Shown: in pieces, positions 36,433 to 38,914 of the stretch
Layout of the letters: the number at the start of each line of letters is the position of its first letter
Numbering within the stretch: the stretch's first letter is position 1
Assembly (NCBI RefSeq): GCF_044324875.1
Contig: NZ_CP172185.1
DNA: 64,000 bases
Source of the DNA: Escherichia coli
GTDB lineage: Bacteria > Pseudomonadota > Gammaproteobacteria > Enterobacterales > Enterobacteriaceae
Reading direction: 5' to 3' (one strand)
Position numbers and translations under genes: made by a program
The notes under the pieces: model-generated
What the model was told of the DNA's origin: nothing
What the model saw: the letters and a program-made list of their open reading frames with translations, nothing else
The model's database searches: none

Positions 36433-36544
36433 ATGCCCCCCGTACTACATTTGCCAACTGTATGCTACGCCTGTGTTGCCGCTTCTCTGGCCCACGGTTC
36501 GCTGTCGTTGTAGGCCCGGTAGCATGTGTACCGGGCCAGGGTTG

Positions 36545-38479
36545 TTAAGACGATTTACGTACGCGCAAATACCATTCGCACAGTAAACGCACCTGTTTAC
36601 GGGTGTAGCCTTTTTCCATCATACGGTCGACAAAATCGTCGTGTTTCTTCTGCTCGTCGGTTGACGTTTTGGCGTTAAACGAAATAACCGGCAACAGCTC
36701 CTCGGTATTGGAGAACATTTTCTTCTCAATAACCGTGCGCAGTTTTTCATAGCTGGTCCAGTTAGGATTGCGTCCGCTGTTATTCGCTCTGGCGCGCAGT
36801 ACGAAGTTAACAATCTCGTTGCGGAAATCTTTTGGATTACTGATCCCCGCCGGTTTCTCGATTTTCTCCAGCTCGGCGTTAAGAGACTCGCGGTCAAACA
36901 ACTGCCCGGTATCCGGATCGCGATACTCCTGATCCTGAATCCAGAAATCCGCGTAGGTAACATAACGGTCGAAAATGTTTTGCCCATATTCGGAATAGGA
37001 TTCAAGGTAGGCCGTCTGGATCTCTTTGCCGATAAACTCGGCATATTTCGGGATCAGATAACCTTTCAGGAACTCCAGATAGCGTTCTGCCTGCTCTTGC
37101 GGGAACTGCTCGCGCTCGATCTGCTGTTCCAGGACGTAGAACAGATGGACCGGGTTTGCCGCCACTTCTACATGATCGAAGTTGAACACGCGGGAGAGGA
37201 TCTTAAACGCAAAACGCGTCGACAGACCGTTCATCCCTTCATCGACACCGGCGTAGTCACGATATTCCTGATACGACTTGGCTTTGGGATCTGTGTCTTT
37301 CAGACTTTCGCCATCATAAACCCGCATCTTTGAATAAATGCTGGAGTTTTCTGGCTCTTTAAGGCGCGAAAGAATGGAAAAACGTGACAGCGTTTCCAGC
37401 GTGCCAGGGGCGCAGGGGGCGTGAGTCAATTCACTGTGATTAAGCAATTTCTCGTAGATTTTGATCTCTTCGGAAATGCGCAAGCAATACGGCACCTTCA
37501 CGATGTATACACGATCGAGGAAGGCTTCGTTGTTTTTGTTATTACGGAAAGTGACCCATTCGGATTCGTTCGAGTGGGCGAGAATAATCCCGTTGAACGG
37601 CAGGGCGGAGATACCTTCCGTCCCGTTGTAGTTACCTTCCTGAGTGGCGGTTAGCAAGGGATGCAGCACTTTAATCGGTGCTTTAAACATCTCAACGAAT
37701 TCCATGATCCCCTGATTGGCGCGGCACAGCGCACCGGAATAGCCGTAGGCGTCCGGGTCATTCTGCGCGTAGTGTTCGAGTTTACGAATATCGACTTTCC
37801 CAACCAGCGCGGAGATGTCCTGGTTGTTCTCATCACCGGGTTCCGTTTTGGCGATAGCAATTTGTTGCAGAATTGACGGCCAGACCTTCACTACCCGGAA
37901 CTTAGTGATATCGCCACCAAATTCATGCAGGCGTTTTGCCGCCCACGGCGACATGATGGTGCCGAGATAACGGCGAGGAATGCCATACTCTTTTTCCAGA
38001 ATCTGCGCATCTTCCTGCGGATTGAAAAGACAGAACGGATGATCGTTGACCGGGCTACGCTCACCGTTGGCGCTCAATACATAAATCGGTACGAGCTGCA
38101 TTAATGATTTCAGTCGCTCAGCAAGCGATGATTTACCCCCACCCACAGGCCCCAGCAGATACAGGATTTGTTTCTTCTCTTCCAGCCCCTGAGCCGCGTG
38201 TTTCAGATAAGAGACAATCTGTTCAATCGCGTCTTCCATGCCGTAAAACTCTTCAAATGCCGGATAACGTGCAATGACCCGGTTAGAAAAGAGTCGAGAA
38301 AGTCTGGGTTCCTGGGCTGTATCGACCATGACAGGCTCACCGATAGCCATCAATAGCCGCTCAGCCGCGTTGGCATAAGCACTGCGATCTTGCCGACAAG
38401 TGGTAAGAAACTCCTGCAGTGTGAACTCTTCGTCCTTGGCAGCTTCATATCGCTGGCGATAGTGATCGAATATATTCAT
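36545..38479 (-). CDS. yeaG: PrkA-family serine protein kinase YeaG
   Basis: 644-aa ORF with Walker A (GPVGGGKSS) and PrkA-type kinase region. Confidence 0.92.
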   Translation of the reverse strand: MNIFDHYRQRYEAAKDEEFTLQEFLTTCRQDRSAYANAAERLLMAIGEPVMVDTAQEPRLSRLFSNRVIARYPAFEEFYGMEDAIEQIVSYLKHAAQGLEEKKQILYLLGPVGGGKSSLAERLKSLMQLVPIYVLSANGERSPVNDHPFCLFNPQEDAQILEKEYGIPRRYLGTIMSPWAAKRLHEFGGDITKFRVVKVWPSILQQIAIAKTEPGDENNQDISALVGKVDIRKLEHYAQNDPDAYGYSGALCRANQGIMEFVEMFKAPIKVLHPLLTATQEGNYNGTEGISALPFNGIILAHSNESEWVTFRNNKNNEAFLDRVYIVKVPYCLRISEEIKIYEKLLNHSELTHAPCAPGTLETLSRFSILSRLKEPENSSIYSKMRVYDGESLKDTDPKAKSYQEYRDYAGVDEGMNGLSTRFAFKILSRVFNFDHVEVAANPVHLFYVLEQQIEREQFPQEQAERYLEFLKGYLIPKYAEFIGKEIQTAYLESYSEYGQNIFDRYVTYADFWIQDQEYRDPDTGQLFDRESLNAELEKIEKPAGISNPKDFRNEIVNFVLRARANNSGRNPNWTSYEKLRTVIEKKMFSNTEELLPVISFNAKTSTDEQKKHDDFVDRMMEKGYTRKQVRLLCEWYLRVRKSS

Positions 38480-38582
38480 GGTATGCCGTCCTTTCGTTTT
38501 TTAGCACAGGTTAAGAGCCGTTCATATGAATAGTAGAGGCTCCCGGAAGAGGTAAACTGAACGACGTCTCTTGCTAAAACAC

Positions 38583-38598
38583 AGCAACTCTCATGCCA
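38583..38598 (-). promoter_or_regulatory. Putative sigma54 (-24/-12) promoter of yeaG-yeaH: minus-strand TGGCAT-N5-TTGCT
   Basis: Minus-strand sequence TGGCATGAGAGTTGCT matches TGGCAC-N5-TTGCW spacing and core GG/GC, about 105 bp upstream of the yeaG start; yeaGH is reported to be NtrC/nitrogen-starvation induced. Confidence 0.5.
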
Positions 38599-38914
38599 TT
38601 TTATCGACGATGAGAACAACGTGCCCGGTGATACACCTTCAAAATTAAGCGTAGATGGCAAATGGAAAACTTGCCTGCACGGCTTTCTTAATTTCAATGG
38701 CATATCAACAACTCATCCATAAATTTTGCATAATTAATGTAAAGACCAGGGTCGCCAGTAACGCTAAATTCATTTGGCTGTAAGCGCGGTGTCATCCGCG
38801 TCAGGAAAATTAAACAGTTACTTTAAAAAATGAAAACGTAAAAAGGTTGGGTTTCGATGTATTGACGGGTAAACTTTGTCGCCCGCTAAACATTTGTTTA
38901 AGGAATGATTAATT

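Follow-up and report, generated by a model that had tools for sequence, protein, structure and literature searches.

Through which promoter does nitrogen starvation act on the yeaGH operon of Escherichia coli, and from where is that promoter activated? We addressed this question in a 64,000-nucleotide stretch of contig NZ_CP172185.1 (the window), in which the 16-mer TGGCATGAGAGTTGCT lies on the minus strand upstream of yeaG, at 38583..38598. Exact matching, scoring with a position weight matrix (PWM), published chromatin immunoprecipitation (ChIP) on identical sequence, and conservation together make it very probable that the known sigma54-dependent promoter of yeaGH has this motif as its -24/-12 element. 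The existence of that promoter is textbook-level knowledge of the nitrogen-regulated (Ntr) regulon and is not new: its recovery re-derives a published promoter, adds little, and serves as a positive control in which reading by sequence alone arrived at a validated sigma54 site. What is potentially new is the unlocated NtrC enhancer of yeaGH, together with a conserved and possibly remote cluster of NtrC boxes beyond the divergent gene mipA.

A sigma54 element upstream of yeaG

The 16-mer has a single exact match within the window, and its 3′ end is 104 nt away from the first base of the yeaG start codon (A38479), which bears out an earlier note on this DNA that had read a sigma54-like sequence about 105 bp upstream of the gene. 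The GG-N10-GC spacing described there is also present, GG (38597/38596) and GC (38585/38584) being separated by 10 nt, and the motif departs from a TGGCAC-N5-TTGCW-like sigma54 consensus by one mismatch. With C38584 set as position -12, the predicted start of transcription is A38572, leaving a predicted leader of 93 nt (38480..38572, minus strand). The span assigned to the operon in that note (36433-38600) takes in yeaG and the promoter but leaves out yeaH.

We built a sigma54 PWM from the 41 other ChIP-validated intergenic sites in Table 1 of Bonocora 2015 (PMC4591121), which themselves score 8.6-21.5 bits with a median of 16.0. At 15.8 bits, the yeaG site ranks 22nd of 42 and is the second-best match in the window; however, 0.7 matches at or above this score are expected in 64 kb of random sequence, such that the PWM scan proposed in the earlier note yields a value typical of real sites but one that chance could also supply. 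The motif score by itself proves little and is not significant window-wide, and we regard the site as real because of its placement, orientation and conservation, not its score alone.

The 435-nt yeaG-mipA intergenic region is identical to that of E. coli MG1655 at 434 of 435 bases, with the sole difference, at 38751, being far from both promoters described here, and published experiments therefore carry over directly to the window. Site OS18 of the MG1655 sigma54 ChIP-seq dataset is the identical 17-mer, 93 nt from yeaG and flagged as previously predicted (PMC4591121), and the identical 16-mer was recovered as a sigma54-bound site by ChIP-chip in Salmonella LT2 (STM1285; Samuels 2013; PMC3844500). 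The promiscuous activator DctD250 raised yeaGH 2.5-fold by microarray in LT2, which is rpoS-defective, and did so in an rpoN-dependent manner (PMC3844500). In nitrogen-starved cells, an NtrC ChIP-seq peak of 12-fold enrichment is present at yeaGH (Brown 2014; PMC4066584), and yeaG mRNA rises 36-fold at nitrogen run-out (Figueira 2015; PMC4664914), in keeping with the induction by nitrogen starvation through NtrC that the earlier note had mentioned. Two adjacent promoters, one RpoS- and one RpoN-dependent, have been described for yeaGH (PMC6299236, PMC10954441). Occupancy by sigma54 and NtrC, induction on starvation, dependence on rpoS and pairing with the small RNA SdsR (see below) have thus been demonstrated by others on identical sequence, and the sigma54 reading agrees with these experiments.

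Two further PWM matches in the window deserve mention. The best one, TTGGCACGGTTTTTTCA (16.3 bits; 33632..33648, minus strand), falls in the 3′-terminal part of cdgI (yeaI) and precedes the start of dgcJ (yeaJ), at 33526, by about 105 nt, and a yeaI/yeaJ site (IS, 1869785) is included in the lower-stringency sigma54 ChIP-seq list of Bonocora 2015 (PMC4591121). Because this site and that of yeaG both appear in sigma54 ChIP-seq lists, the top two PWM matches of the window are bound in vivo in MG1655. A weak sigma54-like match, TTTGCATAATTAATGTA (11.3 bits; 38725..38741, plus strand), lies in the intergenic region shared with mipA and is oriented toward that gene. By RNA sequencing (RNA-seq), mipA RNA rose 3.8-fold (129 to 496) when sigma54 was supplied (Bonocora 2015; PMC4591121), which is more likely to be a growth effect, since ribosomal protein genes rose too.

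Conservation of the sigma54 promoter

We compared 80 loci with YeaG orthologues, one genome per species. In a first scan, 25 of 31 Enterobacterales loci carried a sense-strand sigma54 match of 13.9-17.7 bits at 78-226 nt upstream of yeaG, as did three of five loci fetched later, and the same PWM scan found no equivalent match in any of the 47 loci from outside the order. Positive loci came from Escherichia, Citrobacter, Pseudescherichia, Pluralibacter, Superficieibacter, Enterobacter and Kosakonia, from Erwinia, Pantoea and Tatumella, from Serratia, Rahnella, Brenneria and Dickeya, and, among those fetched later, from Buttiauxella, Ewingella and Enterobacillus. The first scan found no match in Yersinia, Edwardsiella, two divergent 'Enterobacter' genomes and a Pantoea insect symbiont; the two later negatives were one Hafniaceae genome and Yersinia ruckeri, and none of the Vibrionaceae, Shewanella, Aeromonas or Alteromonadales loci scanned had a match. 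The sigma54 promoter at yeaG is thus specific to Enterobacterales. Table S5 of Bonocora 2015 (PMC4591121) already reports conservation from Escherichia to Sodalis and loss in Yersinia, Vibrio and Pseudomonas, a pattern that our comparison reproduces and extends.

In alignments spanning about 15 Enterobacterales genera, neither TGGCA nor GTTGCT shows any change, whereas the spacer and flanks vary. The supposition that the motif is a functionless chance match draws on the 0.7 matches expected per random 64 kb, but the motif is oriented and spaced relative to the gene as a promoter would be, its core has stayed constant amid variable flanks, and the identical sequence is occupied by sigma54 in vivo in two species: published ChIP effectively refutes this supposition, to which we give almost no credence.

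In the Pantoea symbiont of Nezara viridula (locus L031), the sigma54 element has decayed to TTGGCCTAAGGAGTTTGAT, and the conserved upstream block and sigmaS-like box described in the following section are kept. This change looks like promoter erosion in a reduced symbiont genome.

A sigmaS-type promoter upstream of the sigma54 element

Alignments of 12 Enterobacteriaceae, and a wider one across four families, resolve four conserved blocks upstream of yeaG: a 26-nt block, the motif TCTACGCTTAA, the sigma54 -24/-12 element, and most of the leader, from about +20 as far as the ATG. The second of these (38645..38655, minus strand) is a sigmaS-type extended -10 element by conservation and consensus fit, with C at -13, the hexamer TACGCT and an A/T-rich TAA discriminator: it is near-perfect with respect to the KCTAYRCTTAA form and invariant in 12 Enterobacteriaceae genera. 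The sigmaS start is predicted to fall near 38641, with a leader of about 162 nt passing through the sigma54 element, which would occupy about +44..+59 of the sigmaS transcript. From the two motifs, we infer exact start sites of the yeaG transcripts at 38572 and near 38641. In Salmonella, yeaG reads fall about 220-fold, from 5730 in wild type to 26 in ΔrpoS, and reads from the yeaG 5′ non-coding region fall from 589 to 1 (PMC4330354), a pattern that fits a far-upstream sigmaS start.

A CTAnnCTTAA box is found 55-70 nt before the ATG in Vibrio, Photobacterium, Shewanella, Aeromonas and Pseudoalteromonas, with no sigma54 motif there. Because this box occurs without the sigma54 motif outside Enterobacterales, the simplest history would be that the sigmaS promoter is ancestral and that the sigma54 promoter arose later inside its leader.

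The 26-nt block GATGAGTTGTTGATATGCCATTGAAA (38692..38717, minus strand) shows 0-2 mismatches in 12 genera, and its Serratia/Rahnella form is a palindrome, AGTCAT-N4-ATGACT. Its distance to the sigmaS -10 element is fixed at 46-47 nt, whereas the sigmaS -10 and sigma54 elements are separated by 53-115 nt; from this fixed spacing, the block appears to belong with the sigmaS promoter, and it is probably a transcription-factor site serving that promoter. Comparison of GATGAGTTGTTGATATGCCATTGAAA with known regulators produced no match. We rejected the block as an NtrC enhancer because it keeps its distance from the sigmaS -10 but not from the sigma54 element, and because its sequence does not resemble an NtrC box.

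The 3′ 70 nt of the leader are nearly invariant in the 12 Enterobacteriaceae. Within it we read a ribosome-binding site, AGGA (38489..38492, minus strand), and the SdsR pairing site CCTGTGCTAA (38501..38510, minus strand), which maps to the -31..-22 region shown to pair with SdsR by McQuail 2023, where -93..+63 was taken as the yeaG 5′ untranslated region (PMC10954441). The experimentally used end of this region (-93) coincides with the predicted sigma54 start, A38572. A structured leader RNA was considered and dismissed: folding was no better than that of shuffled sequences (z = +1.15, +0.88), and none of the 13 consensus pairs is backed by a compensatory change. A search of the yeaG leader region against Rfam gave no match. 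Across the window as a whole, only the small RNA sroD (14618..14703, plus strand; 115 bits) matches an Rfam family at gathering threshold.

Contribution of sigma54 to yeaGH expression

Several observations weigh against a sigma54 promoter activated by NtrC. No base-resolution start site for yeaG was found in the literature, nor, in the accessible literature, any measurement of yeaG in a glnG (ntrC) mutant, the papers crediting glnG dependence to a microarray study that they cite (Zimmer 2000). The yeaG promoter is not listed in genomic SELEX (gSELEX; systematic evolution of ligands by exponential enrichment) with purified RpoN holoenzyme and NtrC (Shimada et al.; PMC8743547). The earlier note advised looking for NtrC sites 100-200 bp further upstream, but a scan with the NtrC consensus TGCACCAnnnTGGTGCA (14 scored positions over a 17-mer) returned no box of at least 9/14 within 520 nt upstream. 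In Salmonella, a yeaG reporter shows no dependence on rpoN, its activity being as high or higher in ΔrpoN (PMC3844500). In nitrogen-replete cells, moreover, yeaG and yeaH RNA is 3- to 4-fold lower when sigma54 is supplied (PMC4591121): in M9, yeaG has 367 reads in ΔrpoN and 117 with sigma54, a difference of about 3-fold (Table S4 of Bonocora 2015). Unchanged expression in an rpoN mutant, which the earlier note had put forward as refuting the promoter, is thus a misleading standard outside nitrogen starvation, because a strong sigmaS promoter lies just upstream; such a comparison misleads unless cells are nitrogen-starved and, ideally, lack rpoS.

The expression data could instead mean that the sigma54 site binds holoenzyme and contributes little, with induction being mainly due to sigmaS as sigmaS and guanosine tetraphosphate (ppGpp) rise, and with the sigma54 complex acting as a poised bystander or as a brake on read-through. 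The lower RNA with sigma54 supplied and the Salmonella reporter both suit this explanation, as do the very strong sigmaS dependence in Salmonella (PMC4330354) and the position of the sigma54 element within the predicted sigmaS transcript. However, sigmaS genes without sigma54 sites show the same drop (dps, -1.62; otsB, -1.94; poxB, -2.04), and Bonocora 2015 saw no roadblock effect at intragenic sigma54 sites (PMC4591121). The rpoN-dependent response to DctD250 in a strain defective in rpoS also speaks against it, as do the presence of NtrC at the locus in vivo (PMC4066584) and the fact that the -24 and -12 elements have both been kept by selection across families. We consider this explanation improbable. 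As a component of it, we discarded the idea that the sigma54 closed complex blocks transcription from the sigmaS promoter: the decrease in yeaGH equals that of other sigmaS genes, and because dps, otsB and poxB drop alike without sigma54 sites, no local roadblock is needed. The tandem layout, sigmaS and then sigma54, accounts for the apparently negative rpoN-mutant and reporter results outside nitrogen starvation.

Under the preferred reading, in which yeaGH is served by a functional sigma54 promoter, RNA polymerase-sigma54 would sit at the yeaG element as a closed complex that phosphorylated NtrC opens upon nitrogen starvation, with transcription starting at about 38572 and producing a 93-nt leader. 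This promoter would be nested 53-67 bp downstream of the older, strongly conserved sigmaS-type promoter, which would drive the operon in stationary phase and other stresses, its leader of about 162 nt passing across the sigma54 element. The 3′ part of the leader would be common to the two transcripts, and SdsR pairing there would lower translation late in starvation, such that the operon would join a nitrogen signal (NtrC/sigma54), a general stress signal (sigmaS) and a post-transcriptional brake. What the present analysis contributes to this scheme is the sequence with its score and conservation, the nested arrangement, and the finding that no NtrC box lies close by.

Search for the NtrC site

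How NtrC reaches the yeaG promoter we can only infer. The relaxed NtrC core GCAnnAnnnTnnTGC (8 positions) is matched best by TGCAGGCAAGTTTTCCA, which occurs once, at -99, and agrees at 6/8 positions; 1.6 such matches are expected by chance, and this one is not conserved. Neither canonical nor relaxed NtrC-box scans of 435-520 nt upstream, applied to the window and 23 orthologues, detected anything above chance or conserved, and proximal boxes were dropped as candidates.

There may be no dedicated enhancer at all, with the high levels of NtrC-phosphate reached in full starvation acting from solution or from weak, non-consensus sites near the promoter. The sole nearby weak match, TGCAGGCAAGTTTTCCA, would be such a site, although it is at chance level, and some species possess the sigma54 promoter without the boxes beyond mipA that are described below. 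The NtrC sites of glnA lie more than 100 bp upstream of its start. The NtrC ChIP-seq peak on the yeaG promoter itself also points to action from nearby, but the peak centres in Brown 2014 fall within about 40 bp of the sigma54 start at glnA, glnK, gltI, ddpX, astC, nac, yhdW and yeaG alike (PMC4066584). Because peaks hug the start at genes with known upstream sites (glnA, glnK, nac, astC), their position is uninformative as to the binding site, and we abandoned it as a means of locating the enhancer. Also contrary to action from nearby is the gSELEX result, which does not have NtrC binding at the yeaG promoter (PMC8743547). We judge activation without a dedicated enhancer to be quite conceivable, if somewhat short of an even chance.

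NtrC boxes beyond mipA

The best NtrC match in the 64-kb window is the box TGCATTACGGTGGTGCA (12/14 in the NtrC-consensus scan; 39717..39733, no strand assigned), which is identical in MG1655. It lies just past the mipA terminator hairpin (39696..39714), 18 nt before the ATG of yeaE and 1153 bp upstream of the sigma54 start, beyond the divergent mipA. An NtrC gSELEX peak, also present with RpoN and NtrC together, coincides with TGCATTACGGTGGTGCA and was assigned to yeaE, which is up 3.1-fold in an rpoN- and ntrC-dependent manner according to Shimada et al. (PMC8743547); in contrast, Park et al. 2023 report yeaE as the only direct NtrC target by ChIP-exo that is down-regulated by NtrC (PMC9853098). 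The reports on the effect of NtrC on yeaE thus contradict each other.

In many orthologous Enterobacterales loci (among L007-L028, L087 and L090; the corresponding stretch of the window is 39684..39733), NtrC-like boxes occur at +14-19, +36-41 and +66-71 nt after the mipA stop, around its terminator, with the outer boxes (1 and 3) 52 bp apart, or five helical turns. Boxes at these fixed positions are found in Serratia, Dickeya, Rahnella, Brenneria, Enterobacter, Kosakonia and Pluralibacter: those of Serratia grimesii score 12/14, 10/14 and 12/14, and Enterobacter, Dickeya and Rahnella have three boxes each. They are kept where yeaE is absent and the spacer separates convergent yeaD and mipA, and since they persist without yeaE, they would not be maintained for yeaE alone.

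Of the 26 sigma54-positive loci, 20 have a box of at least 10/14 no further than 100 nt from the mipA stop; the figure is zero for the eight loci that lack either the sigma54 promoter (three Yersinia, Edwardsiella and another Hafniaceae genome) or adjacent yeaGH (three Morganellaceae), and the background expectation is 5% per locus (Fisher p = 1.7e-4 over the 34 loci, with no phylogenetic correction). Enterobacteriaceae, Erwiniaceae, Pectobacteriaceae and Serratia/Rahnella have both the cluster and the sigma54 promoter, the Yersinia and Hafniaceae loci have neither, and the cluster is missing from Morganellaceae, where yeaGH is not next to mipA. As an alternative target of the boxes, we sought another sigma54 promoter, and set the idea aside when none reached 11 bits in the 3-kb flank of nine loci; nor did any conserved sigma54 match of at least 8 bits fall within -350..+250 of the mipA 3′ end in 22 loci.

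The boxes flanking the mipA terminator, 1.09-1.18 kb upstream and across mipA, could be the enhancer of the yeaG sigma54 promoter, acting by DNA looping. The lack of a proximal box argues in this direction, as do the position of the window's best box at 39717-39733, the fixed positions of the boxes across genera, even without yeaE, their co-distribution with the promoter, and the absence of any other sigma54-like promoter within about 3 kb. Reitzer and Magasanik are said to have found in 1986 that NtrC acts from distant sites, and such action is a known property of the protein. NtrC also binds the mipA-yeaE spacer in vitro (gSELEX; PMC8743547), and its binding there in vivo is suggested by the status of yeaE as a direct ChIP-exo target (PMC9853098). 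However, the NtrC ChIP-seq of Brown 2014 has a peak only at the promoter and none at the box (PMC4066584), and a simpler role in E. coli, repression of yeaE, is available (PMC9853098). Moreover, only one good box is left in E. coli, the Citrobacter boxes accompany yeaE and stand apart from mipA, and Pseudescherichia, Enterobacillus and one Pantoea have the sigma54 promoter without boxes; the co-distribution itself comes down to about three independent negative lineages, uncorrected for phylogeny. We hold enhancer action from these boxes to be possible but doubtful. The fuller proposal, in which the cluster activates yeaG from about 1.1 kb away across a divergent gene, no proximal enhancer exists, and the E. 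coli box additionally represses yeaE, seems rather unlikely to be correct in all its parts, and we offer the remote enhancer as a lead and do not count it among the findings. No canonical NtrC site is present in the neighbourhood except the one 1.15 kb off, which is currently assigned to yeaE, and were it the yeaG enhancer, it would constitute a rare natural case of kilobase-range sigma54 activation across another gene.

In the window strain, an IS21-family element (istA/istB, ISSso4-like; about 40022..42689) interrupts yeaE, whose open reading frame (ORF) stops at 40056 in place of its normal length of 855 nt. An IS21 insertion at this place in yeaE was present in one of 5426 complete E. coli genomes, and it leaves the NtrC box TGCATTACGGTGGTGCA intact.

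The yeaGH genes and their products

Both genes of the operon are intact in the window. The first, yeaG (36545..38479, minus strand), encodes a PrkA-family AAA+/kinase-like protein of 644 aa, identified from its ORF, Pfam (PF08298 at residues 19-380, 2e-187; PF06798 at residues 382-636, 1.7e-70) and NCBIfam, where its 1342 bits against PRK15455 far exceed the cut-off of 576 and make it a full-length PrkA member. The second, yeaH (35149..36432, minus strand), encodes a YeaH/YhbH (DUF444) protein of 427 aa by ORF and NCBIfam (PRK05325, 842.7 bits). A terminator-like hairpin with a T-run just after the yeaH stop (35116..35144, minus strand), recognised by consensus scan only, likely marks the end of the operon. 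The segment 35000-39000 was matched in 5425 of 5426 complete E. coli genomes, with cdgI, yeaH, yeaG and mipA annotated in the best matches.

The earlier note's description of the substrate and mechanism as poorly defined holds: E. coli YeaG is reported as a kinase, Bacillus subtilis PrkA as an ATP-dependent protease and not a kinase, and Bacillus anthracis PrkA as having neither activity, such that the biochemical activity of YeaG/YeaH is contested. Related 'serine protein kinase' structures (9xip, 9xiq, 9xir) match YeaG at E = 7.5e-51, and a sequence search returned no solved structure of YeaH.

Comparison with known systems

The closest relatives of the promoter described here are the yeaG promoters (yeaGp) of E. 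coli K-12 and Salmonella LT2, which have the same 16-mer (17-mer in E. coli) at the same distance from the ATG as in the window; there is no relevant difference, apart from the interruption of yeaE in the window strain by the IS21-family element. At the level of the genes, yeaGH resembles prkA-yhbH(-spoVR) of Bacillus and other Gammaproteobacteria in protein families and in adjacency, yeaG and yeaH being adjacent in 79 of the 80 orthologous loci. It differs in that a SpoVR-family third gene follows yeaH in Vibrio, Shewanella and Pseudoalteromonas, whereas cdgI follows in the window. A third gene of about 505 aa comes after yeaH in non-Enterobacterales loci (L033-L081): that of Vibrio (L040, 6360..7904) is SpoVR/YcgB by NCBIfam (PRK11767, 945.6 bits), and those of Shewanella and Pseudoalteromonas are assigned by N-terminal similarity only. 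Among the Enterobacterales loci examined (the window, Yersinia L024 and Serratia L019), no SpoVR-family gene follows yeaH.

Among Ntr promoters, yeaGp is like glnAp2, a -24/-12 promoter that is bound by sigma54-holoenzyme, depends on NtrC, and has a second promoter upstream in the same control region. Strong NtrC sites are located at about -108 and -140 of glnAp2, whereas at yeaGp no NtrC box can be recognised within 520 nt, and the partner promoter there, being of the sigmaS type, reads through the sigma54 element. As at rpoH, glmY and glmZ, where a further promoter also serves the gene, deletion of rpoN does not lower reporter activity (PMC3844500). Unlike in those cases, however, the two yeaG promoters do not overlap: they are arranged in tandem, 53-67 bp apart, and the partner is sigmaS-dependent.

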